DNA of 40,644 bases from a virus. The position numbers were made by a program, and so were the translations under genes. A model generated the notes under the pieces. It made no database searches, was not told where the DNA came from, and was given only the letters and a program-made list of their open reading frames with translations. How positions within the stretch are numbered: the stretch's first letter is position 1; each line of letters opens with the position of its first letter. Of this stretch, positions 1 through 11,179 are shown piece after piece. The stretch lies in UHGV virus genome UHGV-0357162. One strand, given 5' to 3'.

Positions 1-575
1 ACCAACCCGGACTTGTTCCCCTTATAAAGTGGGAACGTGCCAAGGACCTTTCCGCCTAGTGTTAGTTGAAGTGTCGCCGCGTTGGTATTGTTCTGAACGG
101 GGAAAACGATAATCGGGGTTCGTAGCGTCCAGTCTGTACCTCCATTAACAAAAAACGTCGAGGGAAGTTCCAGCGTCAGTGCGTTTGCAGTGCCACCAGC
201 AACACCCGCAATATAATGACCGCTCTGAAGCTGCGCTATCTGTACGAAATAGTTTTCCGAACCACGCGTGGCAAAGTTAGCCACAACGTCATTAAGGGAC
301 CAACCTTTCGCGGTCGTTCCTTCCTGCCCACGAATGACTTTCAACACATCACCGCTTACCGATACCAGGTGACAAATCTCAAATGCAGACTCTTTATTAT
401 CGGTAAGCGTAATTTTTGCATAGACGCGTTGCCCGTTCGATTTATTTTCAAAATCGGCAGAAAGCAATTTTGCAAATTTAGCTCCCGTGCCCGGCATCAC
501 CGGAATATCAGTCTGAATCGTCGTGATATCGCCAGCCAGTGCTGAAACAACGTTATTGCCAAATCCAAGAATCAT
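1..575 (-). CDS. putative tail fibre / host-specificity protein, N-terminal part (partial; continues past window start)
   Basis: Minus-strand frame open from ATG at 573-575 to the window edge; N-terminus MILGFGNNVVSALAGDITTIQ; ATGA stop/start overlap with the upstream gene; sits after the J-like and I-position genes. Confidence 0.4.
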   Translation of the reverse strand, partial: MILGFGNNVVSALAGDITTIQTDIPVMPGTGAKFAKLLSADFENKSNGQRVYAKITLTDNKESAFEICHLVSVSGDVLKVIRGQEGTTAKGWSLNDVVANFATRGSENYFVQIAQLQSGHYIAGVAGGTANALTLELPSTFFVNGGTDWTLRTPIIVFPVQNNTNAATLQLTLGGKVLGTFPLYKGNKSGL

Positions 576-1198
576 TTTTGAATCACCGTTGTTGCATAGG
601 AATAAATAAAAGGGAGTTTTACATATTTCTGGTCAATGGCATCTTTAAGAAAATAGCCTATGCCATCGCCATACTCTGGTATCTGAATAGAAAAAACACT
701 GTCCGATACAGTCACACTCACATCAAAAGTATGCTGCAATGGCGGGTCTATTCCGTTTTTCCCATGAATGAACCGTGCCACACGGCGCTTTAACCAGTCA
801 ATGCAGAAATGCGAACCGTCAGCCTTATAAAAATTCCAAGTTAATATTCGCTTGAAATAATCATCCGGAACATACGATGCCTGCCCCGGAACATAATTCC
901 GCATTGCCGCATAAGGGATTGTATTGTATTCAATGGTATCGTATGCGCCGCGTGCAATAGCCTCCTCGGAAACCTGTAGTAAAGGCCTTTCAACGCCATA
1001 AATCCCGAGTGCAATCCAGTCCAGCAACTGCCCGGTTATTGATTCCGATGTCCAGCATGGCAATGCCAGATTGTTGAGTGAGTCGAGGTATTCCTGAGCA
1101 ATTTCATTGTATGCATCAAAGAACGCAACAACATTCGGATCATCTCTGTACTGCACAAATGGATAAGCAGGGAGAATTTTCTCAGTCAGATATTGCAT
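572..1198 (-). CDS. tail/baseplate protein in gpI position (hypothetical)
   Basis: Track ORF 572..1306; likely start at MQYLTEKIL (1198), overlapping the stop of the J-like gene; position between J-like gene and fibre. Confidence 0.4.
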   Translation of the reverse strand: MQYLTEKILPAYPFVQYRDDPNVVAFFDAYNEIAQEYLDSLNNLALPCWTSESITGQLLDWIALGIYGVERPLLQVSEEAIARGAYDTIEYNTIPYAAMRNYVPGQASYVPDDYFKRILTWNFYKADGSHFCIDWLKRRVARFIHGKNGIDPPLQHTFDVSVTVSDSVFSIQIPEYGDGIGYFLKDAIDQKYVKLPFIYSYATTVIQK

Positions 1199-2408
1199 GC
1201 TTGTTGACCTGAACCTGTGATGCCACCGTTGAAAAATAGGAATAGGTATCGCCATAAACCAGGCTTGTGTCTTTCGCCGGAAGAACAATATGGCCGTTAA
1301 TACCAATGCTCACACTGATTGTTGAGATCAACGTCGCATCAACCAGCAACCTGACGGAACTGGTAAAAATATCCTGGATACGCAGAAGATTTATCGGGTG
1401 TCCGACTTCAATTGAATTGATGTAATCAGCAACGTTTTGCTGCACAGCCATAGCAATACCCGCCGGATCAACATAATCATCAGACACCGTGTTCCAGGTG
1501 ATTAGCACCATGACGTTTTGTGATGACGGGATAACGAACGGCACCTGATAAACGTCCGGCGAAACGGTTATTGAAACCGTGCGTTTTTCCACTGCCGCAC
1601 CGGATGGATTGCTTACATCGTTGGTCAGTTTCGAAATATCCGGTACAGATTTGTAAATCGCATAAGCCACATCATACGGATCACCGCCACCAACAACCGC
1701 AACCCATTTCCCCAGCGACGACTGCCGAAAAGAAATCAGGTTTTCTCGCACACCGTTTACTGATTTGAGCATCGCTTTAAAGCAATCCGGTGTTCCCTGC
1801 ACACCAAACATGCCGGACTCCATGACTTCGGCGCGGTAAGATGCCCACGTTTGCGCCTCCTGACCTGGCATCCCTGCGGTAAGGTTCGTGCATTTTACAG
1901 GCTGGTCTTTTGGTACTGATGTAATGACCTGCGTCACGGTCCCTTCCGGTACAGCCCATGAGCCTGACGTTGTGGCCACACAGTAAACTGGCTCAGTCTG
2001 CCCGCTTTCCGGTATCACAGTATCGCGGGAAACCGCATACTGGTAGTTACCGTCACCAACCACAAATCCTTTAGGGATACCAAACCCCGGCAACGCCTCA
2101 AACACCACGTATACCGCCGTATTTGTACTTAATCCCTTCTGTGCTCCATATATGTTTCCGAGTTGCATCAGTAACGGAATATTCGCGCCGTATGGGCTTA
2201 CAGAGTTAATAAGGTCCACCCGCGCCTGGTCTATTAATGCCAGCGCCCCTACTGCCGTGCTGGCAAGGTCTGTAATAAGTCCTGCCGGAAGGTTGGCTGT
2301 ATATCCAGGTACTTTTTCAGCAACTCTGGTGATAAGATTCGCGAGCAAATCATTGGGTGGCGTAGGCTGCGCACCCGCACTGGTCATAGTAATTGGTATT
2401 TCTGACAT
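1182..2408 (-). CDS. baseplate J-like protein
   Basis: 408 aa; position and composition resemble the baseplate J family; compare in-window Mu gp47-like protein at 37690..38769. Confidence 0.55.
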   Translation of the reverse strand: MSEIPITMTSAGAQPTPPNDLLANLITRVAEKVPGYTANLPAGLITDLASTAVGALALIDQARVDLINSVSPYGANIPLLMQLGNIYGAQKGLSTNTAVYVVFEALPGFGIPKGFVVGDGNYQYAVSRDTVIPESGQTEPVYCVATTSGSWAVPEGTVTQVITSVPKDQPVKCTNLTAGMPGQEAQTWASYRAEVMESGMFGVQGTPDCFKAMLKSVNGVRENLISFRQSSLGKWVAVVGGGDPYDVAYAIYKSVPDISKLTNDVSNPSGAAVEKRTVSITVSPDVYQVPFVIPSSQNVMVLITWNTVSDDYVDPAGIAMAVQQNVADYINSIEVGHPINLLRIQDIFTSSVRLLVDATLISTISVSIGINGHIVLPAKDTSLVYGDTYSYFSTVASQVQVNKHAISD

Positions 2409-2422
2409 ATATCCCCTATATA

Positions 2423-2442
2423 AAAACCGCCGAAGCGGTTTT
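2423..2442 (-). terminator. rho-independent terminator downstream of the DUF1311-like moron
   Basis: Hairpin AAAACCGC-cgaa-GCGGTTTT; on the minus strand the stem is followed by TTTTTATAT; lies between the moron stop (2451) and the J-like start (2408). Confidence 0.5.
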
Positions 2443-2450
2443 AAGTTAAC

Positions 2451-3197
2451 TTATTTTGCCTGTTTCATTTTTTCCACCCTCTCAAGCATTCTTTTTACAT
2501 TTGATGGAGGATAGTTAAATTCATCGCCGTCTCCAAAAGAAATTTTTATAGGCTTCATTTTCATAACCAACTCTTTCAGAACTGCTTTACCAATTTCAGT
2601 TTTTGGCACTATAAAACCATTTCCATACAAGCATGATTTATAAGTTTTATAATATTCACCATTAATCAAAATTGGTGGATATTCTAATGGGCCATCAATT
2701 TGCACTGAATTATCGCAAAATCCATTACCTTTAGATTTTGAAGCAATAAAAATAGCTATTGTTCCATCATCGCCATACATCAGGAATCTATTTTTACTAA
2801 CACCTTCCAATGGAGGTAATATTATCAGTGCACCATCAATATACCATTCAGCGTAATTCTCTGATTCATTGATTATGTTCTCATTAATTTCATTTAAAGA
2901 TGAATATTCCCTGAATGCATTAGAATACCATTGTCGAACACATGATTCTGTTTTGCACTTCTCTCTTTCATTCCACAAGTCTGAAACAATTTTTCTAAAA
3001 GCTTTCTTATCAGTGCTCTCTAACTTTACTTTTTGATATAAAGAATTTAATTTATCATCAAGTTCAGATAATTCACTGTTGTTGCAAATTAACTTTTCAG
3101 AATATGATTTAGCTTTCGAGCAATCAAAAGATACTGCATTCGCAGTTCCTATTTGTAATAAAAAGGTAAACACTACAAATAATTTTAACTTAGACAT
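2451..3197 (-). CDS. secreted DUF1311/LprI-like protein (moron)
   Basis: Signal peptide MSKLKLFVVFTFLLQIGTANA; Cys-spaced motif FDCSKAKSYSEKLICNNSELSELDDKLNSLYQKV ... WYSNAFREY typical of the DUF1311 (lysozyme inhibitor LprI N-terminal) fold; GGAG RBS; markedly AT-rich relative to neighbours. Confidence 0.55.
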   Translation of the reverse strand: MSKLKLFVVFTFLLQIGTANAVSFDCSKAKSYSEKLICNNSELSELDDKLNSLYQKVKLESTDKKAFRKIVSDLWNEREKCKTESCVRQWYSNAFREYSSLNEINENIINESENYAEWYIDGALIILPPLEGVSKNRFLMYGDDGTIAIFIASKSKGNGFCDNSVQIDGPLEYPPILINGEYYKTYKSCLYGNGFIVPKTEIGKAVLKELVMKMKPIKISFGDGDEFNYPPSNVKRMLERVEKMKQAK

Positions 3198-3534
3198 CCT
3201 TAATCTCCTTATAAAACAGGAGAACAAATTTTACCCATTCTTAATGTCTGTTCAAGTTCATACTTTACAACCGCGCCCAGTTGAGTATGATTGGACGCAT
3301 GAGGCGTCGAAACCTCCCCCAAAAGCTGATTACCCAGCACCCTACAATGTGTTGGTTTTTTTATGCCTTTTTTTTGTGATGGCAATATGTGCGATCACAA
3401 CCCCGATCAATGTCGGGAGGGCGACGAATACAACACCCGAAAGGGGAATAAGTCCGCGGTATCTTTTGGGCCGTTTCGAACCTCCCGGCGCCACTACGTT
3501 AGTGGCAATTCGAAAAAAGCCAAAAGAGGTTACT

Positions 3535-4095
3535 ATGACCACCCAACTCATCACCGTGTTCAACGGAACCATTTCGAACGAAACCATCCTTCTATGCAAC
3601 GCTCGCGATCTGCATGCCTTTCTCGAAGTAGGTAAACGCTTTGCCACTTGGATTACCGAACGAATCAGCGAGTATGAATTCGTAGAAAATCAGGACTTTT
3701 TGATTATTTCCCAAAATCGGGAAAAAATCGGTAGAGGCAGACCAGCCAAAGACTACCATCTCACCCTGGACACCGCCAAAGAGCTGGCTATGGTCGAACG
3801 CAACGAAAAAGGACGCCAGATCCGCCGATACTTCATCGAGTGCGAGAAGAAGCTGCGCGAAGATACCACCAGCACACAATCCCCTCTGAATGTTGACATC
3901 ATCATGCGCGTCAGAAACGGCTCGGTTACCCACATTGAGCACCACAAATCAGGCTCAGTTATAACCACAGAATGGGCAATTCACTTACTACGCAAAAGTG
4001 GATGGATTGTCATGCCACGCGATGAACTTCTTAACACGCCACTGGCCCAATTGATACCCGAAAACTTGCCTCAAACCGGAACCTGCGTCCGGTAA
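3535..4095 (+). CDS. phage anti-repressor, AntA N-terminal domain plus KilA-C-like C-terminal domain
   Basis: Start MTTQLITVFNG with RBS AAAGAGG; motifs ATWITERISEYEFVENQDF (AntA-like) and DYHLTLDTAKELAMVERNEKGRQIRRYFIECEKK (KilAC-like). Opposite strand to the surrounding tail genes; the long track ORF 3079..4095 is an upstream extension. Confidence 0.7.
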   Translation: MTTQLITVFNGTISNETILLCNARDLHAFLEVGKRFATWITERISEYEFVENQDFLIISQNREKIGRGRPAKDYHLTLDTAKELAMVERNEKGRQIRRYFIECEKKLREDTTSTQSPLNVDIIMRVRNGSVTHIEHHKSGSVITTEWAIHLLRKSGWIVMPRDELLNTPLAQLIPENLPQTGTCVR

Positions 4096-4418
4096 CTGGT
4101 TCCGTTAAAAAACACAACATCGATGTTATAGGTGGGGTTCTCTGCCCCATCTACTTTTGAAATTGCCAGCGATGCAAAATACCCGGCATACTGTTGCTGA
4201 ACCATGTTCACATAGTAGTCCGGGTAAATCTGCTGCACGATGCACTGCTGCGCTGGAATGCCGTAATTCGCGTAAAACGGCGACTCCCCCAACCCCAGCT
4301 TTAACGTCTGAATGAGCGTCGTCAGCCAGCCGTAGGAGAAATCACCGTTGGCGTCTGACTCTACCGCCACCCATTTTTTGTTGCCGTTCGCGTCGGTGAC
4401 GCGGCCCCATGTTCTCAT
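4071..4418 (-). CDS. hypothetical tail-module protein (gpW position)
   Basis: Track ORF 4071..4451; likely start MRTWGRV at 4418 with GAGGG RBS; no recognisable gp25/W motif, so function unassigned. Confidence 0.4.
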   Translation of the reverse strand: MRTWGRVTDANGNKKWVAVESDANGDFSYGWLTTLIQTLKLGLGESPFYANYGIPAQQCIVQQIYPDYYVNMVQQQYAGYFASLAISKVDGAENPTYNIDVVFFNGTSYRTQVPV

Positions 4419-4425
4419 CGTGCCC

Positions 4426-4572
4426 TCACCACCATCGGATCTGGCCAACAAAATACCCAGACGCCAGAATCAGAAAGACCAACCAGATAAGTAAAAACTT
4501 CCAATTGGGAAATTTCTCGCCCATAACTCGAATCTCAACTAGTAATTTATAAACAATGAAAAGAAACTTCAT
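4426..4572 (-). CDS. small hydrophobic peptide, paralog A (48 aa from ATG 4572, or 32 aa from ATG 4524)
   Basis: MKFLFIVYKLLVEIRVMGEKFPNWKFLLIWLVFLILASGYFVGQIRWW; AAGGGA RBS before 4572; paralogous to 4691..4789. Confidence 0.4.
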   Translation of the reverse strand: MKFLFIVYKLLVEIRVMGEKFPNWKFLLIWLVFLILASGYFVGQIRWW

Positions 4573-4690
4573 ACAAATCCCTTTGTAACAATTACTTATA
4601 CCAAGTCATTCTATGCTTGAGTTCACGTAGCAAATCATCCATGAAGTAATTTGTTGTTTTTTCATTGCTATATGTAAAGTTATGTAAAAA

Positions 4691-4789
4691 TTACCGCCAC
4701 CGGATCGCCTGAATCAAAGCGGATAGTCCAAATAAGAAAAACACACGCCATATCAACAGGAATTTCCAGTTGGGTAATCTTTCGCCCAT
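4691..4789 (-). CDS. small hydrophobic peptide, paralog B (32 aa)
   Basis: MGERLPNWKFLLIWRVFFLFGLSALIQAIRWR; AAGGAG RBS 9 nt upstream; shares MGE(K/R)xPNWKFLLIW with paralog A. Confidence 0.4.
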   Translation of the reverse strand: MGERLPNWKFLLIWRVFFLFGLSALIQAIRWR

Positions 4790-4806
4790 TTCTCGTAACT
4801 CCTTTA

Positions 4807-4971
4807 TCAGTTTTTCAGGTAAATCAATGTACCCGCCACTAATGCAGTACAAATGATCCAGGCAACAGGCGTAAGTACGTGACGAATCCCTCGGCATACC
4901 GCGATTATCCTCGCAGCCTTATCTGCTCCTTGCGGAGTTGTCTCAGCCTTAAGAATCAGTTCGCTATCCAT
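4807..4971 (-). CDS. small membrane protein (54 aa)
   Basis: MDSELILKAETTPQGADKAARIIAVCRGIRHVLTPVAWIICTALVAGTLIYLKN; polar N-terminus and one predicted TM segment; below the ORF-track length cutoff; start overlaps the end of the upstream mini-ORF. Confidence 0.35.
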   Translation of the reverse strand: MDSELILKAETTPQGADKAARIIAVCRGIRHVLTPVAWIICTALVAGTLIYLKN

Positions 4972-5056
4972 TTAGAACCTTTATGATCTCTGCGATTCCC
5001 GGAAGAGATTTAGCAACAGCAAACCCTCCGATAACTATAAGAACTGCATAAAACAT
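4964..5056 (-). CDS. small hydrophobic peptide (30 aa)
   Basis: MFYAVLIVIGGFAVAKSLPGIAEIIKVLNG; first gene after the terminator at 5191..5224. Confidence 0.25.
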   Translation of the reverse strand: MFYAVLIVIGGFAVAKSLPGIAEIIKVLNG

Positions 5057-5190
5057 TCTTCTCAGAACCGGACTTCTTTCGAGCAATTTTAGAGCTTCCA
5101 CAATCCAGTCTCCTCCGCTAAAATTAATCACGGAAGACCTCCAAACATACGTAATTATCCCTTGCCTTATTCAAGGTCAGAAACAGAAAA

Positions 5191-5224
5191 CCCCGACTGG
5201 GCCAACAGTCGGGGTTTTCGTTTT
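5191..5224 (-). terminator. rho-independent terminator downstream of the spike-like gene
   Basis: Stem CCCCGACTG / CAGTCGGGG with 6-nt loop, A-run on one side and TTTTCGTTTT on the other (bidirectional architecture). Confidence 0.55.
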
Positions 5225-5256
5225 ATGGGTAGTATTTAAAGTGAAATGAACCGGTA

Positions 5257-5970
5257 TTAACCCGGATTTGGTTTCTTCGACGTGATCGTACTGCCACCGC
5301 TTTGAACACCAGTCACATCGTGACTGTGGCTGCTGGCGCTCACGCCGTTGATAACTGCATCTTTCTCGACCTTAAGAGGACCAATCAGCGAAGCGGTTGT
5401 ATCCTTCATCTGGGCTTTGTCCTGGACGATCGGTCCGTTGAGGTGAATTTGACCGTTCATGAAGATATCTTCGGCCTCGAGGTAAACAGCTTTCGACTTT
5501 AGCCTGATTTCTTCCGGTGCCACCGTTACCGAGCTACTGCCGTCCTCTGTTTTGATGATCGCGCCATCCGGACCGTACAAAACGATTTTTTGCGGATCTT
5601 CGTCGGACCAGTCCTTGTTTGCCAGTGGCACGAAAAACAGGGGAGTGAGCGACATCGAGTAAGAGAGCGTCGCCATACCGGTTCCCAATCCGGACACACC
5701 GCGCAGGGATACATCAGCGGCAATTGTTACTCCTCGATCACCCGGCTGTATCGGGTAACGGATATACGGGAATGTGGCGACAGGGATTGTTATCTGCGGA
5801 AAGTTGATCCCCTCTGGCAACATATCAAACTGAACGGTCACTATCTGCCCACTGACATCGACAACATGGCAGGGCAATTCACGGCCTTTAAGCTCGGCTT
5901 GCTGGTTGCCAGAACTGGTCATCATCTCCGACAGCGTTCGGAGAAACGGTAATTTTTGAGCGTTTGACAT
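5257..5970 (-). CDS. baseplate central spike protein (gpV-like)
   Basis: 237 aa; C-terminus INGVSASSHSHDVTGVQSGGSTITSKKP resembles the His-rich apex of gpV/gp5-type spikes; ATGA overlap with the upstream gene. Confidence 0.55.
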   Translation of the reverse strand: MSNAQKLPFLRTLSEMMTSSGNQQAELKGRELPCHVVDVSGQIVTVQFDMLPEGINFPQITIPVATFPYIRYPIQPGDRGVTIAADVSLRGVSGLGTGMATLSYSMSLTPLFFVPLANKDWSDEDPQKIVLYGPDGAIIKTEDGSSSVTVAPEEIRLKSKAVYLEAEDIFMNGQIHLNGPIVQDKAQMKDTTASLIGPLKVEKDAVINGVSASSHSHDVTGVQSGGSTITSKKPNPG

Positions 5971-6965
5971 TACACCCTCGCCCAGTTCTCAGCATATGCC
6001 TCAAATACCGTCACCCAGGCATCGCCATCAGCTGTCAGATACGAACCAATGTGTCTGACCGATTTCACAAGAAATTTCCCGGTGAACGTGGTCGAATTTT
6101 TTGCGATAACGCTGGGTGCCGTTGTATTAGCCATCACAATCGACGCAGCGCCAGAATATAGCCCCTCCGGCAGTTTAACCACATCACCACATCTGATATC
6201 GCCTCTCATAGGACATTTGAAACTGACGGTAAACGGCGCTATCCATGTCGGCTGCCCGACCAGTTCATGGGCATGAATTGTTTTTGGCTCCCCCCACTTT
6301 GCTGACGCGTTATCGTAAATTCGTATTCTGTCGGAAAGAATACTGATGGCAATCCCGCTGTATTTCTCATCGCGCATCATTGCAATTGAAGCACTACGGA
6401 GGACCATAGCCAGCGAACCAATATCTTCGTAGGTTCCATTCCACGGTTCCGGCAAAACGAGGCTGTCGCTGACAGTACAATCGATCAACTTATTCGGAAA
6501 TGCCTTTTGCAACGCACGGAAGATTACATCACCAACCTTTTCCCCTTTAAGCCCCTCCCCCTCGATAGAGAACGGTTTACCATCATCTGTTTTGCGTACG
6601 GTTGGATTTATTACCAGGTTTAAGGTCTGGTTCGTGCCGATCCAGTTGGCATAGGCCAGATAAATTTCGCCATAAATAACCTCACCCTGTTGCTGTGGAT
6701 TTGCCAAAGGCAATCCCTCAACAAAGCCCGCTTTCATACGGACCAGACACCCCTGCAAACTCACGCTTTGCTTCAGCATGTCGATAGGCAAACCGTATAT
6801 TGTGAGCATCGTTCCTGAATTCACTACATCAAGACCCGCTACCTCTGTGGGGTAGTGATCAATTCTGGGCGGAGTTCGTGCAGCCTGGTAGAACCTGCAA
6901 GCCTTGTGTGGCGCGGGGTATGGTGATTTAGTGTGATTCTGGGCGGATTTGTGAGAAATGACCAA
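5970..6965 (-). CDS. baseplate hub-like protein, possibly 5'-truncated at the Mu-like prophage junction
   Basis: Track ORF starts at a TTG; the first ~28 codons (MVISHKSAQNHTKSPYPAPHKACRFY) look like translated non-coding DNA and overlap repeats 6863..6946; confident coding from about residue 30 (PRIDHYPTEVAGLDVV) or from M at 6809. Confidence 0.4.
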   Translation of the reverse strand: MVISHKSAQNHTKSPYPAPHKACRFYQAARTPPRIDHYPTEVAGLDVVNSGTMLTIYGLPIDMLKQSVSLQGCLVRMKAGFVEGLPLANPQQQGEVIYGEIYLAYANWIGTNQTLNLVINPTVRKTDDGKPFSIEGEGLKGEKVGDVIFRALQKAFPNKLIDCTVSDSLVLPEPWNGTYEDIGSLAMVLRSASIAMMRDEKYSGIAISILSDRIRIYDNASAKWGEPKTIHAHELVGQPTWIAPFTVSFKCPMRGDIRCGDVVKLPEGLYSGAASIVMANTTAPSVIAKNSTTFTGKFLVKSVRHIGSYLTADGDAWVTVFEAYAENWARV

Positions 6966-7158: not shown

Positions 7159-7806
7159 TTATGCTGATTTCTTGTTTACAGGCTTAGTTTCTTGCTCCGG
7201 TGTGACGGGAACGCGATCACCTGGTGTTCCAGCACAGAAAATGGCTTTGGCGCGGCGCAAAATCTCTTTGTCATTTTCCTCATCGCCAGCTAATGCCATG
7301 CAAACAGCGTCTTTAAGCGATTGCCTGATGTTCAGGCTTTGAATGGCCTTCCTTTGCTCCTCAAGTTCGCTATCGGCTTGCTTAGTTTGCCTGGTGGGTT
7401 GCTGTAGGCGTTCCAAGATTCCTTTAATGCCCATATCGCATATTGCACTTATCAGTTGTTCCTTATCTTCTGTGGACGCTCTTTTCAATAACTCGTTAAC
7501 TAGCTCGTTTGTAATATCGGGAGAAGGCTGCGCTGTTTGATTTGATAGAGAACCTTCTTTGGCGGTGGGTTCCTCACCATAAGCGAGCCAATTTAAGCTC
7601 ACTTGTTCTTTATCTGAGATAAGACAAGCTATTTTAAAAGAAGGCTCTGTTCCTTTATGAATGTAGTTGTTTAAGGTTGAAGGGGGGATTCCCCAATCAC
7701 TCGCAGCAGTTCTGACACTACGGTTACCTATCAGCTTTACTAAACGCTCTCTGAAACTTTCTTTTCCCTGGTCGACAAAAGAAAAAGCATCATCATTTCT
7801 AGTCAT
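7159..7806 (-). CDS. prophage repressor (Mu c position), HTH DNA-binding protein
   Basis: 215 aa, transcribed divergently from the ner-like gene; N-terminal helix-turn-helix-like region SVRTAASDWGIPPSTLNNYIHKG. Confidence 0.55.
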   Translation of the reverse strand: MTRNDDAFSFVDQGKESFRERLVKLIGNRSVRTAASDWGIPPSTLNNYIHKGTEPSFKIACLISDKEQVSLNWLAYGEEPTAKEGSLSNQTAQPSPDITNELVNELLKRASTEDKEQLISAICDMGIKGILERLQQPTRQTKQADSELEEQRKAIQSLNIRQSLKDAVCMALAGDEENDKEILRRAKAIFCAGTPGDRVPVTPEQETKPVNKKSA

Positions 7807-7939
7807 TTTTTCTTTCCTCTATAACTGATTGATTTTAATTGTAAAAACCATATAAAGACCAAAATCAAAAAGAAAATACAAAGAAAGAGCTATTTTTGCT
7901 TTACATGGGCTACATATGGATCAATACTTGTATCCGAAG

Positions 7940-7961
7940 GGATAACACGGCGGTGTTATCC
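7940..7961. promoter_or_regulatory. operator palindrome GGATAACAC-ggcg-GTGTTATCC, with additional GGATAAC half-sites at 7931..7935 and 7966..7972
   Basis: Perfect 9-4-9 inverted repeat in the repressor / ner-like intergenic region, immediately upstream of the ner-like start. Confidence 0.5.
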
Positions 7962-7988
7962 GCACGGATAACTTTTAAGGGTAACCTA

Positions 7989-8225
7989 ATGATGGTTAGA
8001 AATGAAGTAATGAACAAAGACTGGCACCGCGAGTACATCGTTGCCGCTGTGCACACCAAAGGTTTTACATTGCGTGAACTTTCTGAACGCGCTGGTCTAA
8101 AAAAAGACTCTTTAAAAAATGCACTGTATCGCTCATGCCCTAAATATGAACGCATCATAGCCGATGCTATTGGTGTGGAACCTGCGGAGATCTGGCCAAG
8201 CCGGTATGCCAGTAAGGCGGCGTAA
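7989..8225 (+). CDS. ner: Ner-like DNA-binding protein
   Basis: About 78 aa starting MMVRNEVMNKDWHREYIVAAVHTKGFTLRELSERAGL; position directly upstream of the transposase with TAATG overlap; the track N-terminal extension covers the operator. Confidence 0.7.
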   Translation: MMVRNEVMNKDWHREYIVAAVHTKGFTLRELSERAGLKKDSLKNALYRSCPKYERIIADAIGVEPAEIWPSRYASKAA

Positions 8226-10267
8226 TGTTTTATTCAGCCAATGAGCTGGCCGGTCTTCCTGGTTTGCCCGGTACAGTTCAGGGGGTGCGCTGGACGCTCA
8301 ATCGGATCACAGAGACGCACCCAGAATGGAAGCGCAAGCGCGAAGGCACCAAAGCATTCGAGTATCACATCGACTGCCTGCCCGCTGAAGCGCAGAAAGT
8401 TTTACGTAAGCGCCTGACTCATCAGGTCCTGGAAGATGCACAACTGCCCGCCGTAGTTGAGCAGAAAGCAGTTAAAAACGTCGCCGTTCGCGATGAACTG
8501 GAGGTGATGGTCAAATGCCCGGAGCTGGCATTACGCGAAGTCCAGTCACTGACCGACAAGCAAAAGGCCATCGCTGATGCGCGGATATTGCTGGCTACTG
8601 AAGTGCATAAGCTGCGCGAGTATGCCGGAATGACCAGGAAGGCCGCTTTAAAGCACATCGTTGATGGTGTGCGCATGGGGGCGTTACCTGACCGCATTAT
8701 CGAAGCAGCGAATACTGCAAATGCACGTCAGGGAAAGCGAACCGGTGTCAGCACCGGCAGCCTGGATAGCTGGTACTCCAGCTGGGTGATGGCGCGCGGT
8801 GATGCCAATCAGTTACTGGCGTTACTGGCTCCCGGTCATCATAAGGGAACACCGTGGGAGCAGGTCTGGTGGTTGAGCGATTTCTTTATGTTCTATCGCT
8901 CATGGAAGCGCCCGACTGTTGAATATGCGTATCGTGAGTTTTCAGCCTGGTGGCATGAAAAACACGCGAATGATGCGGGAATGCTGGCGGCACTGCCTTC
9001 AGTTCACGCAGTAAGACGGGTGTTAAGCAGCGTCCCGGTGATTGTTAAAGAGCGTTTCCGCTCCACCGGTTCAGCCTGGCGTTCGCTCAATCCCTTTGTG
9101 CGGCGCGACTGGACATCATTACCGGTTAATGCGGTATGGGTCGGGGATGGTCACTGTATGAAAATGACCGCGTTTAACCCCCTGACCGGCAATATTTTCC
9201 GGCCAGAAGTGACGCTGGTTATGGATGCGGGGCAACGCTTTGTTGTGGGCTGGTCACTGTCCCTGTCGGAGAACGTGATAGCCGTTGCTGATGCGTTACG
9301 TTACGGCATGGCGCAGCACGGGATACCGCTGATTTATTACTCCGATAACGGGGGCGGTGAAAAAAACCGGGTGCTTGATGCCGATATTACCGGGATTCTG
9401 CCCCGGCTGGGTGTGGAACATCACACGGGGATACCAGGTAACCCGCAGGGGCGCGGGGTGATTGAACGGGCAAACAAAGGAATACCCAAAGACGTGGCTC
9501 TGAGTTTCCAGACGTACTGCGCAAGGGATGCAGACAAGGAAACCGTAATGATGCAGCAACGGATTATGCAGTCAGCCATTAAGGCCACCCACAAAGGGAA
9601 AGAACTGACAAAACGGCAGGTTAAGGCGAGGGATGAAATCCCCACCTTTGAGCAACTGCTGGCAGCCATAGAGCTGGAGGTCAGACGCTATAACAACCGG
9701 CCACACAGCAGCCTACCCCGCAAAGAGGATGGCGAATATTACAGCCCGGCAGCGTATCGCCGGAAACTGATAAAAGAGCAGAATGTTGAAATTGATTTCC
9801 TGTCGCCGGAAGAACTGCATGAAATGTTCAGACCGGAAGTGACGCGCAAAACATTTCGCGGGGAAATTCAGTTATTCAACAATATTTATTACTCATATGA
9901 TCTGGCCGCAGAGCACGGGAATGAAGTCAGGGTCAGTTACGATATTCATGATGCAAACAGCGTCATTGTCCGGCGGGCTGATGGCTCTTATATCTGCGAT
10001 GCCATCTGGAACGGTAACAAGGTTGATGCCTTCGCTAAACCAGTTATCGAACAAAAACTGGAGAAACGCGTCAGGGGCCGCATTGCACGGGCTACGCAGA
10101 AAATCGAAGAGGCTAAACGCGAGCTTACCCCGGCTATTACGCAGAAGCCTGACTTTAATCTGGGATATGGACTGGAGCGCCCGGAGAAAAAGGAAAAAGA
10201 AGAACTTTATTTATTCGCATCTGAACGCGAGCGCAATTTAAAGAAAAACGGCACAAACAACCGTTAA
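8225..10267 (+). CDS. A: Mu A-type DDE transposase
   Basis: 680 aa; N-terminus ANELAGLPGLPGTVQGV resembles the MuA DNA-binding N-terminus; DDE-core-like VWVGDGHCMKM; followed by the MuB-like ATPase. Confidence 0.9.
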   Translation: MFYSANELAGLPGLPGTVQGVRWTLNRITETHPEWKRKREGTKAFEYHIDCLPAEAQKVLRKRLTHQVLEDAQLPAVVEQKAVKNVAVRDELEVMVKCPELALREVQSLTDKQKAIADARILLATEVHKLREYAGMTRKAALKHIVDGVRMGALPDRIIEAANTANARQGKRTGVSTGSLDSWYSSWVMARGDANQLLALLAPGHHKGTPWEQVWWLSDFFMFYRSWKRPTVEYAYREFSAWWHEKHANDAGMLAALPSVHAVRRVLSSVPVIVKERFRSTGSAWRSLNPFVRRDWTSLPVNAVWVGDGHCMKMTAFNPLTGNIFRPEVTLVMDAGQRFVVGWSLSLSENVIAVADALRYGMAQHGIPLIYYSDNGGGEKNRVLDADITGILPRLGVEHHTGIPGNPQGRGVIERANKGIPKDVALSFQTYCARDADKETVMMQQRIMQSAIKATHKGKELTKRQVKARDEIPTFEQLLAAIELEVRRYNNRPHSSLPRKEDGEYYSPAAYRRKLIKEQNVEIDFLSPEELHEMFRPEVTRKTFRGEIQLFNNIYYSYDLAAEHGNEVRVSYDIHDANSVIVRRADGSYICDAIWNGNKVDAFAKPVIEQKLEKRVRGRIARATQKIEEAKRELTPAITQKPDFNLGYGLERPEKKEKEELYLFASERERNLKKNGTNNR

Positions 10268-10285: not shown

Positions 10286-11179
10286 ATGAGTTTAATTACG
10301 CAATTAAATGACGTAATGGCCCGTCGCGGCTATACGCAGACCCACGTCGCCCGTGCTATTGGTCGTAGCAGCGCCGTTATCAACCAGTATTTACAGGGTA
10401 AATATCAGGGCGATATGGCTGATATTGAAGAACGCATTTCTGCCTTTGTGACCCGTGAGCGGGAAAAGGAAAACAGCCGCCGTATTAAAGCGAAATTTGT
10501 TGCCACCGGTATGGCTGCCAAAGGACTGGAAGTGCTGGCCTATGCTCACCTGGAATGTGAAATCTGCGTACTGTATGGCGCGGCAGGTCTTGGCAAAACA
10601 ATGATTCTGCGTGAATACGCCGCCAGAAACCGGGATGCGGTCCTGATTGAAGCTGACCCGGGCTATACAGCCAGAACACTGCTTGAGGAGCTGTGCCGCC
10701 AGCTGGGGGTAAAAGTTCGCGGCAATATCCACGAACTGATTGATGCATGTGTGCGAGAACTGCGTGATTCCGGTCGCCTGCTGATGGTGGACGAGGCTGA
10801 ACTGCTCCCCTATCGCGCACTGGAGGTTCTGCGCCGTCTGCATGACAAAGCGGGTATCGGGATTGTCCTGGCGGGTATGCCACGCCTTCTGATTAACCTC
10901 AAGGGACGTCGCGGTGAGTTCGCCCAGTTATACAGCCGTGTGGCGCTGGCGCTTAACCTGGGCGATACGCTGGCGCAGGAAGATTTTAACCAGATAGCCA
11001 CCGGGCTGATGCCGGAAGCAGCAGAACCGGAAATCAGCGAGGCGCTTTATACACGTTCGCTGGGTAATGCCCGCCGCCTGTTCAAACTGGCGCGTGGTGT
11101 GTACCGGATTTGTGATATCAGCGATGCACCGGTCAGTGTGCAGGCCATTGATAAATTCGCAGAAATGTTAATTCACTGA
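10286..11179 (+). CDS. B: Mu B-type AAA+ ATPase target DNA activator
   Basis: 297 aa; Walker A LYGAAGLGKT and Walker B LLMVDEAE; N-terminal HTH; immediately follows the transposase. Confidence 0.85.
   Translation: MSLITQLNDVMARRGYTQTHVARAIGRSSAVINQYLQGKYQGDMADIEERISAFVTREREKENSRRIKAKFVATGMAAKGLEVLAYAHLECEICVLYGAAGLGKTMILREYAARNRDAVLIEADPGYTARTLLEELCRQLGVKVRGNIHELIDACVRELRDSGRLLMVDEAELLPYRALEVLRRLHDKAGIGIVLAGMPRLLINLKGRRGEFAQLYSRVALALNLGDTLAQEDFNQIATGLMPEAAEPEISEALYTRSLGNARRLFKLARGVYRICDISDAPVSVQAIDKFAEMLIH

Follow-up and report, generated by a model that had tools for sequence, protein, structure and literature searches.

Between the W-position gene and the J-like baseplate gene of the UHGV virus genome UHGV-0357162, a stretch of 40,644 nucleotides (nt) that we refer to throughout as the window, lies an accessory slot that appears to hold two independent units. 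One is a moron for an exported protein with an LprI-type domain and a slot-specific C-terminal domain, called here the cargo gene and the cargo protein. The other is an antirepressor cassette in which the gene ant would be held shut by a c4-like antisense RNA, in the manner of the immI region of phages P1 and P7; this immI-like lock is built on an RNA that is filed under the small RNA (sRNA) family sRNA-Xcc1. We give this explanation as a whole a probability of about 0.68. Anatomy, family matches, covariation of the three RNA sites and polymorphism of the slot can be seen in the sequences themselves; repression, maturation of the RNA, activity of the promoters and the biochemistry of the secreted protein are deductions. 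Both genes are of ordinary kinds for phage accessory genes and nothing about them is categorically new; the re-reading of the RNA is the part worth testing.

The antirepressor cassette (unit 2, ~3264-4095, plus strand) differs in several respects from how a preliminary description of this DNA had presented it. That description named ant an AntA/KilAC anti-repressor on the plus strand; the strand and the AntA domain both held (PF08346; Table 1), but KilAC was not found, AntA being the only Pfam family in the protein at E≤0.1. The C-terminal part matches phrog_14211, and PHROG anti-repressor families match at E=1e-56 to 2e-68. The cargo gene and ant had also been described as convergent, and ant counted as a moron in its own right. 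The two genes are actually divergent, with starts at 3197 and 3535 and a 337-bp spacer between them—it is with the W-position gene that ant converges, the 3' ends overlapping by 25 nt (4071-4095). The name of an immI-like regulatory cassette suits ant better than that of a lysogenic-conversion moron. The spacer is for the most part a structured leader on the ant strand, which would read, in order: an upstream site b1, a leaky terminator-like hairpin, the 86-nt c4-like RNA, a hairpin carrying its CCA tail, two sites a2 and b2 over the Shine-Dalgarno (SD) sequence, and then ant itself.

The RNA matches the Rfam model RF02221 over its full length (model positions 1-87). It comprises a closing stem, P1; a hairpin 1 with a conserved AAUACAA...GAAA core; a hairpin 2 whose loop, b', is variable (UCUUUUGG, 3462-3469); a junction strand a' (UUUCGAA, 3474-3480); and a 3' G-CCA tail. 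The hairpin-2 loop and the 3' junction would pair with b2 and a2, so masking the ribosome-binding site (RBS), and no Ant would be made in the lysogen. The upstream b1, acting in cis or as a short terminated RNA, would compete for the loop and thereby release translation, and the loop/target sequence would set specificity, as in P1/P7 heteroimmunity. In folding models, the b1/loop duplex has a dG of -11.7 and b1 pairs with the loop in the whole-leader minimum free energy fold, which suggests that b1 may compete with b2 for the loop. The terminator-like element downstream of b1 recurs as well: nearly every ant leader, whether Xcc1-type or C4-type, keeps a hairpin and then TTTTTTATGCC in this position. 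In the C4-type loci, the position equivalent to 3334-3362 is that of the isrK terminator. One further hairpin, at 3376-3398 (GUGAUGGCA...UGCGAUCAC, dG -11.9), separates the terminator-like element from the Xcc1 RNA and is kept in the enterobacterial leader subfamily.

The small palindrome in front of ant had been noticed before, and it could be taken for a DNA operator. It is indeed present, but it is a covarying RNA hairpin in the c4-like antisense leader (hairpin 3; Table 1) and not an operator-like DNA site. Of 24 distinct leaders, 23 have a hairpin predicted here, built from eight or more different stem sequences (mean z -3.0), and it is deleted in three variants (L005, L017 and L030). Because the stem sequence varies across leaders while pairing is kept, conservation is at the level of RNA. 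Two other candidates in this part of the cassette were set aside. A LexA box or other operator was sought in 3198-3534, where no CTGT-N8-ACAG motif was visible by eye; and identity of the element with 24B_1, a small RNA of Stx phages that is said to control d_ant, was considered, but 24B_1 maps to the lom region, not to an ant leader (PMC4426718).

An Xcc1 element lies upstream of ant in all five annotated relatives, and among 20 diverse ant loci from IMG/VR, 15 have an Xcc1 element ending ~40 nt before the ATG, while the other five have isrK and C4 at the same place. Alignments of the leaders made with MAFFT were too inconsistent between subfamilies for base pairs to be counted, and anchor-based tests with cross-locus controls were used instead. 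Across ~36 distinct leaders the loop, b2 and b1 vary in concert, giving more than 12 specificities; matching b1 copies, placed at -195 to -217, occur in 12 or more of the variants. Loop/target variants include GCAAAAAGA, UCAGUGAGG, CGCAUAG, ACCAAAAG, ACAAACAG, CUUCAAAG, CUUACAAG, AUCUAUG, CAAAUAAG, UGCAAAG and CGUCAG. For 23 distinct b2 classes, the match of a loop to its own target averages 6.7 nt, as against 4.1 nt across loci; a match of at least 7 nt is seen in just 3% of cross pairs. The second contact covaries as well, being UUUCGAA/UUCGAAA in the window, UGUUCA/UGAACA in L055 and UAGUU/AACUA in L035. When leaders are permuted among loci, the downstream and the upstream site alike give p≤5e-5, with duplex energies that partly include the arms of hairpin 3.

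That overlap is among the points that weigh against reading the leader as a c4-like lock. The Rfam C4 model (RF01695) has no hit in 2200-5300 at E≤1, although it does match other ant loci, and there is no icd-like open reading frame (ORF) between the Xcc1 RNA and ant; because of these two absences we class the leader, on its sequence features, as a c4-like variant—an immI analogue or distant relative, and not a member of the C4 family. Promoter-like hits in the region, as scored by consensus scan, are no commoner than in shuffled sequence. In the Xanthomonadaceae loci found by the bacterial scan described below, the complement of the loop lies upstream and not at the SD, and given these loci the SD-masking model may not apply to the family as a whole. 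Finally, sRNA-Xcc1 as published is a trans-acting, virulence-associated or integron-borne sRNA (PMC2996969; PMC12189769).

Set beside known systems, the cassette resembles the P1/P7 immI region (C4 RF01695, c4-a1b1 RF03163). There, translation of ant is blocked by c4 RNA at the RBS, and heteroimmunity depends on the loops of that RNA (PMC12197685). In both, the RNA lies on the same strand and transcript just upstream of ant, has three helices, is closed by a long stem and ends in a tail of CCA type, and presents loops complementary to an RBS site (a2/b2) and to its upstream duplicate (a1/b1), which are variable and would define specificity; Xcc1 and isrK+C4, moreover, take the same position before homologous ant genes. 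The window holds a same-strand RNA upstream of ant, a loop complementary to the RBS region with covariation, and an upstream duplicate of the target. Processing by RNase P and repression in trans are hinted at by sequence, in an N-CCA or N-CCC tail after the closing stem and a CAAUGG 5' flank common to C4-type loci; C4-type leaders, for their part, have the CAAUGG 5' flank, a CCACC tail and a subsequent hairpin just as Xcc1-type leaders do. Unlike C4, the Xcc1 RNA has a strongly conserved AAUACAA...GAAA core in hairpin 1 and only one variable hairpin loop, the second contact coming from the junction strand; icd is absent, so that the target is the SD of ant itself; and Rfam files Xcc1 without a clan, as a family unrelated to C4 (clan CL00128).

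Two other antirepressor systems share parts of this design. In Gifsy-1 of Salmonella, IsrK activates anrP translation in trans, and the IsrK-orf45-AnrP arrangement combines a leaky Rho-independent terminator, a short 5' RNA beside a read-through mRNA, and translation kept off by RNA structure (PMC4825925). The window likewise has a terminator-like hairpin and U7 (3334-3362) downstream of b1, but it has no Rfam isrK match and no upstream small ORF for translational coupling, and activation by a short RNA is what we infer by analogy. The immI region of P22 (ant, the sar antisense RNA, Arc and Mnt) is also an antirepressor cassette among late/virion genes with control of ant at the RNA level. Unlike the window's co-transcribed, same-strand regulator, sar is transcribed in the direction opposite to ant, over its RBS, and protein repressors act in addition. 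A 'sar' match at 5185-5239 in the window is weak and far below threshold.

Variations on the number and placing of these RNAs also occur. In L072 (355-542 and 1372-1460), one of the 15 Xcc1 loci, an isrK+C4 pair lies ~900 nt upstream in addition to an Xcc1 copy beside ant, and L035 has two tandem sRNA-Xcc1 copies (1164-1249, 1377-1462); in Xylella, five tandem copies have been described (PMC12189769). In another IMG/VR contig, a group II intron (L080:2246-2532; D1-D4 domains, 135 bits) sits just downstream of an ant homologue.

Breakpoints of the slot were located by BLAST of positions 2000-4600 against relatives bearing other genes there. Homology to these other-cargo relatives ends exactly at the start codon of J, 2408|2409, and picks up again at 3213 (STEC383), 3262 (ETEC4067) or 3300 (Rac-SA53). 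Segment 2409-3212 is therefore specific to the cargo—it is missing from L001, L004 and L005, which hold different cargo—and even the SD sequence of J comes from it. The alternative cargos are unrelated ORFans on either strand (one gene in ETEC4067, two in STEC383 and two in Rac-SA53), none with a Pfam match; all relatives examined have non-tail genes between W and J, frequently on the opposite strand, and in some a YafO toxin pair stands between ant and the W-position gene. Of 5426 complete E. coli genomes, 12-14 have the cargo gene; it is chromosomal in all of these and sat at the W-J site in every context examined. The junction is thus a precise site of cargo exchange with its breakpoint at the J start codon, and a handy place in which to hunt for new envelope-acting or anti-phage genes.

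The cargo gene stands out from its surroundings in composition and signals, as the preliminary description had remarked in calling it AT-rich and furnished with its own terminator. GC content is 0.30-0.32 across 2401-3300 (~31% in the gene), as against 0.45-0.55 in the flanks, and the hairpin at 2423-2442 bears out the terminator. This hairpin lies within the cargo-specific segment, 15 nt ahead of the start codon of J (2408); a consensus terminator scanner did not call it, because its U-run is mostly inside the stem. The strong SD is cargo-specific too. The putative promoter lies in a part (3213 onward) common to L004, where a 227-aa ORFan unrelated to the cargo gene would be driven from that same position. 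Taken together, presence/absence polymorphism at a fixed site among collinear phages, deviant base composition and an own terminator make the cargo gene a moron by the structural definition of the term, and in this the earlier identification stands; the promoter-like element, TTGAAC-16-TAAAAT with 9 of 12 consensus matches, belongs to a class of hits not enriched over shuffled sequence.

The cargo protein would be exported through the Sec pathway. By inspection, its signal peptide has a K-rich n-region, a 12-residue hydrophobic core and an A-N-A|V cleavage motif, with no lipobox. Its mature N-terminus was earlier taken for a DUF1311/LprI-type domain, and PGAP gives the name 'lysozyme inhibitor LprI family protein' to the identical protein WP_001774840.1. 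The direct Pfam match to LprI (PF07007) is below threshold: it covers just residues 26-66 and scores 16 bits (E=0.016), where the cut-off is 22. Among 41 close members of the family, too, no match to PF07007 reaches E≤1e-3. Absence of a DUF1311 match had been named in advance as the outcome that would tell against the assignment, and 16 bits comes near it; exhaustive search and profile-profile comparison overturned it. Exhaustive searching with phmmer ties the N-domain to multi-repeat proteins (E=1e-20 to 1e-24), and these in turn score on PF07007 at 1e-14 to 4e-29. In hhalign, the N-domain family aligns to ten of the repeats, nine of them PF07007-positive, with a probability of 99.6% and E=1.3e-24; the alignment has 81 columns and takes in the entire domain. 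Four cysteines, C26, C38, C81 and C86, are invariant across 41 relatives within the motif SFDC...IC...LS.LD..L...Y...W..RE.C....C..WY, and the sequence shows both the four conserved Cys (two putative disulfides) and the predicted periplasmic export of LprI proteins. We place the N-domain, from these profile comparisons, in the LprI/DUF1311 superfamily, as a divergent branch with a short loop (Cys-x4-Cys).

This N-domain is widespread and appears to be mobile. A word-indexed search of 5.8 billion proteins returned only the cargo protein's own cluster, and relatives were reached by exhaustive HMMER search: 3476 representative proteins match at E≤1e-3, nearly all among the best 150 through the N-domain alone. 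Fusion partners include trypsin-like peptidase, ankyrin, Mrr-type nuclease-fold and OB-fold domains and many C-termini of no known kind. The domain occurs in 102 GenBank phages, RB49/JSE-type myoviruses among them, and viral fold matches include LprI-like/DUF1311 phage proteins. Searches of PDB sequences with the domain and with the family profile found no match. Other family scans of the cargo protein stayed below threshold (Pfam GapR at 17 bits, and DUF6832; NCBIfam A1S_1983 at 23 bits against 150), and PADLOC gave no match. Two proteins, P0002 and P0003, and alleles from E. coli ETEC4090/ETEC1703 (H77, H78) combine the same or a near-identical signal peptide and N-domain with entirely different C-termini, which points to probable domain shuffling at or near residue 100.

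The C-domain is as rare as the N-domain is common. The preliminary description had spoken of a C-terminal region of unknown function, and scans of Pfam, NCBIfam and PADLOC all came up empty for the region from about residue 112 to 247. AlphaFold2 (AF2) prediction with a 22-row alignment gives a helical domain followed by a beta domain at a mean predicted local distance difference test score (pLDDT) of 78; prediction without an alignment (pLDDT 45) was of no use, and fold searches with the C-domain returned no informative match. Its family amounts to seven 90%-identity clusters among 5.8 billion proteins, with none in 50,697 phage records, and the other members are stand-alone proteins of ~158 residues with signal peptides of their own. 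In the three members with retrievable context, the gene follows, co-oriented, the 115-aa W-position gene of a related tail module, and wherever the contig reaches far enough it stands directly before J (L087, L098 and L099). The one locus profiled for composition, L087, is AT-rich (34-36% GC against 52-57%). A further locus reads YafO, Bro-N (minus strand), C-domain gene and J, which is the layout of the window with Bro-N replacing AntA.

What the protein does can be approached through its parts. Unit 1 (2409 to ~3255, minus strand) would be a classic moron, low in GC, with a terminator of its own, a strong SD and a promoter-like element, and its product a periplasmic protein, probably disulfide-bonded, in which an LprI-type helical domain precedes a rare beta-rich one. 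Such a protein would act on the envelope of the lysogen, most likely by hindering peptidoglycan-cleaving enzymes—for instance the SLT-domain tail protein of incoming related phages—and so causing superinfection exclusion. Envelope-level interference of this kind is our preferred guess, tentatively held, because it fits a periplasmic location, the tie of LprI proteins to control of peptidoglycan hydrolases and SLT-encoding tail contexts; every retrieved context of the cargo gene is in fact a tail module encoding an SLT-domain protein. Morons in tail clusters can confer superinfection exclusion, as does HK97 gp15, and T4 Spackle is a periplasmic inhibitor of the tail lysozyme. Like these, the cargo gene is small and accessory, sits among tail genes and has a predicted envelope product and expression signals of its own; unlike them in sequence and fold, it would plausibly act against incoming phage, an exclusion function being purely hypothetical.

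Alternatively, the protein may modulate peptidoglycan hydrolases of the host, as a lysogenic-conversion or fitness factor and not as protection against phages. The model here is Salmonella ScwA, a periplasmic, horizontally acquired, low-GC and disulfide-stabilized protein with an LprI domain only, which has no effect on lysozyme sensitivity and alters the levels of MltD, Slt and AmiC (PMC7933661). M. tuberculosis LprI, by comparison, carries an additional MliC domain that is sufficient for lysozyme resistance, and inhibitor activity has not been demonstrated for the LprI domain on its own (PMC7933661). With both proteins the cargo protein shares export and a homologous four-Cys helical domain, and with ScwA also low GC and horizontal acquisition. 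Its signal peptide is of signal-peptidase-I type, however, whereas M. tuberculosis LprI is a lipoprotein with an MliC domain; its LprI domain is short (Cys-x4-Cys) and N-terminal where that of ScwA is C-terminal, and beyond that domain similarity to ScwA is undetectable, the C-domain being unrelated as well as rare. The C-domain family, moreover, sits in the W-J slot in every case looked up, which argues for a phage-related selective context. For all that it shares with ScwA—an export signal, four Cys and low GC—we regard a host-directed role as unlikely, and retain interference with incoming phages as the preferred, if doubtful, assignment.

The RNA invites a wider view, since sRNA-Xcc1 is not confined to this slot. 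A bacterial scan, one genome per species, with the hairpin-1 core motif AATACAAYACCCNNNNGGGRAATA listed 80 loci (L102-L179 among them), which is a lower bound; the statements that follow concern these loci. They fall in Xanthomonadaceae, Pasteurellaceae, Neisseriaceae, Desulfovibrionaceae, Enterobacterales, alphaproteobacteria and a few other groups. An ORF follows the motif in 71 of the 80, mostly starting 78-96 nt after it (85 nt in the window). By Pfam, the 57 downstream proteins from L102-L179 include Rha (6), Bro-N (5), SymE toxin (5), AntA (3), ORF6N (3), KilA-N (2), P22_AR (1-4) and a few helix-turn-helix (HTH) proteins, the rest having no family, which is an enrichment in proteins of antirepressor type and in SymE toxins; the RNA may thus gate SymE-type toxin genes too, to judge from gene order. 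Complementarity of at least 7 nt between loop and SD is found in 44% of own pairs, as against 5.8% of cross pairs. An sRNA-Xcc1 copy has also been noted upstream of an ORF6N gene in an APSE phage (10.1101/2020.03.17.996009).

We consider it somewhat better than an even bet that the whole sRNA-Xcc1 family is a second widespread class of c4-like programmable antisense gatekeepers, co-transcribed with the downstream gene and masking its RBS, with the upstream decoy as release switch and the loop as immunity specificity, and with AntA, Bro-N, Rha, ORF6N and KilA-N antirepressors and SymE-type toxins as their targets. If so, many 'sRNA-Xcc1' annotations in Proteobacteria would mark antirepressor or toxin switches, and the loop/target code could be read from sequence to predict mutually immune or cross-inducing prophages. 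The literature that could be searched holds no link of sRNA-Xcc1 to c4 or ant; the family-defining paper of 2011 was not covered by that search, and an earlier notice there is possible.

An improbable rival to the lock on ant holds that sRNA-Xcc1 acts here as in Xanthomonas and Xylella, as an independent trans-acting sRNA on host mRNAs, and that its place beside ant is incidental. X. campestris has been found to contain a discrete ~88-nt RNA (PMC2996969), expression of homologues has been seen in Xylella (PMC12189769), and about half of the motif-downstream ORFs lack an antirepressor-type domain. An incidental neighbor, though, would hardly keep a start codon ~78-96 nt away across phyla, nor have a loop that covaries with the adjacent SD and with the upstream copy of the site, nor be interchangeable with isrK+C4 before homologous ant genes. 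Since c4 acts in trans too, a trans role for sRNA-Xcc1 would in any case be compatible with the lock on ant.

The remaining alternatives fare worse. A reading along the lines of the preliminary description combines a periplasmic lysozyme inhibitor (as an immunity or conversion factor), a palindrome serving as DNA operator of ant and a terminator that betrays a decaying tail operon, and this combination is very unlikely. It has in its favor the PGAP name, the homology of the N-domain to PF07007, and the placing of the palindrome 29 nt upstream of the ant ATG and of the terminator 15 nt from the J start. Yet the inhibitor function goes back to the Pfam name alone: MliC (PF09864), Ivy and PliG are all absent from the cargo protein at E≤0.1 in Pfam, and ScwA, with its LprI domain, proved neutral toward lysozyme (PMC7933661), so that 'lysozyme inhibitor LprI family protein' as a label claims more than has been established. 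An operator, for its part, should not change sequence while pairing persists (at least eight stem variants) or be gone from some functional-looking relatives. Nor is the terminator evidence of decay, because it belongs to the cargo, and the same gene and terminator occur in prophages with a seemingly uninterrupted tail module, such as that of STEC711. It is equally hard to credit the C-domain protein as an accessory of the phage cycle (a periplasmic lysis or tail-related factor, say) made late with the baseplate genes: the gene is always co-oriented with tail genes, directly before J, and in L087, where there is no Ant, it lies in line with W and J, separated from them by short gaps, but a signal peptide, foreign GC content and an own terminator all speak against it, as do the many related phages that lack it and carry unrelated, even opposite-strand, genes at that position.

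The tail module of the window is indeed disabled, by a Mu-like insertion at 6845/6846 and not by the cargo terminator. The window consists of two prophages, a Rac-SA53-like piece (1-6845) and a Mu-like element from 6846 onward. The first is ~95% identical to the baseplate/tail-fiber end of Escherichia phage Rac-SA53 (KU052037) and 99.9% identical to prophages of E. coli STEC711 and other livestock isolates; its genes run, all on the minus strand, in the order hub, V-like spike, W-position gene, J and I-position gene (Table 1). Because Rac-SA53 homology ends at 6845 and the end of the Mu-like element adjoins many unrelated genes across other E. coli genomes, a Mu-like phage has evidently transposed into the hub gene, removing ~44 N-terminal codons of a gene that has 335 codons' worth of protein (335 aa) in intact relatives. 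The junction itself was found in none of 5426 complete E. coli genomes. Further genes of the Mu-like prophage (6846-40644) encode a Mu portal, a Mu F protein and a sheath.

Table 1 Features of the accessory slot and its surroundings (window coordinates; residues refer to the encoded protein)
Feature	Position	Strand	Evidence or remark
I-position gene	572-1306	-	
Baseplate J-like gene	1182-2408	-	PF04865 E=4.5e-8; phrog_6 baseplate wedge E=9e-39; left border of slot
Intrinsic-terminator hairpin, AAAACCGC-UUCG-GCGGUUUU then U-AUAU	2423-2442	-	RNAfold dG -10.3 kcal/mol
Cargo coding sequence, 248 aa, ATG at 3197	2451-3197	-	ORF call; signal peptide, LprI-like domain and rare C-domain
Beta-rich C-domain (predicted), residues 112-247	2457-2864	-	AF2 with alignment
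LprI/DUF1311-like four-Cys helical N-domain, residues 22-105	2883-3134	-	
Signal peptide, residues 1-21			By inspection: MSKLKLFVVFTFLLQIGTANA|VS, signal-peptidase-I type
Cargo SD, AAGGAG (strong)	3200-3210	-	Sequence; within cargo-specific segment
Cargo sigma-70-like TTGAAC-16-TAAAAT, putative promoter	3255..3228	-	Consensus scan, 9/12 matches
Promoter-like TTTACA-16-TATGAT, putative	3264-3291	+	10/12 matches, best in region
b1-like site CCCAAAAG, upstream copy of loop target	3318-3325	+	Complementary to loop 3462-3469; 217 nt upstream of ATG
Terminator-like hairpin and U7	3334-3362	+	dG -9.1; would release ~65-nt b1-carrying RNA, IsrK-like
sRNA-Xcc1 (RF02221), read as c4-like antisense RNA	3412-3497	+	72.5 bits vs gathering 53, E=1.5e-12
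Hairpin 3, palindrome GCCACUA-cgu-UAGUGGC (GCCACTAcgtTAGTGGC)	3490-3506	+	dG -10.0; contains CCA tail of the RNA
a2, UUCGAAA	3509-3515	+	Pairs with junction a' (predicted)
b2, CCAAAAGA	3520-3527	+	8 nt perfect complementarity to loop b'
ant SD, AAGAGG	3524-3529	+	Overlaps b2; ATG at 3535
ant, 186 aa, AntA N-domain at residues 22-90	3535-4095	+	PF08346 E=2.2e-28, 99.1 bits vs cut-off 27
W-position gene, 115 aa	4071-4418	-	PGAP coordinates from STEC711; phrog_7986 E=8e-64; right border of accessory region
V-like spike gene	5257-5970	-	
Baseplate-hub gene remnant	5970-6845	-	Interrupted at 6845/6846
Mu-like prophage junction	6845/6846	.	Rac-SA53 homology stops at 6845; element begins 5'-TG at 6846
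CI-type repressor of Mu-like prophage	7159-7806		
Ner-like HTH protein of Mu-like prophage	7896-8225		
Mu transposase	8225-10267		
MuB-like ATPase	10286-11179		

A second variable region lies at 4419-5256, between the W-position and V-like genes. It contains two small membrane ORFs that are paralogues of each other (4426-4572, and 4691-4897 with a match to phrog_6632) and a perfect bidirectional terminator at 5186-5219; relatives have a Rha-family gene or a 65-aa ORF at this position. One further sequence deserves mention for its provenance: PP818812.1, deposited as 'Actinobacillus phage vB_Apl-pPE4', is ~96% identical to the E. coli prophage module, which makes the host label unexpected.

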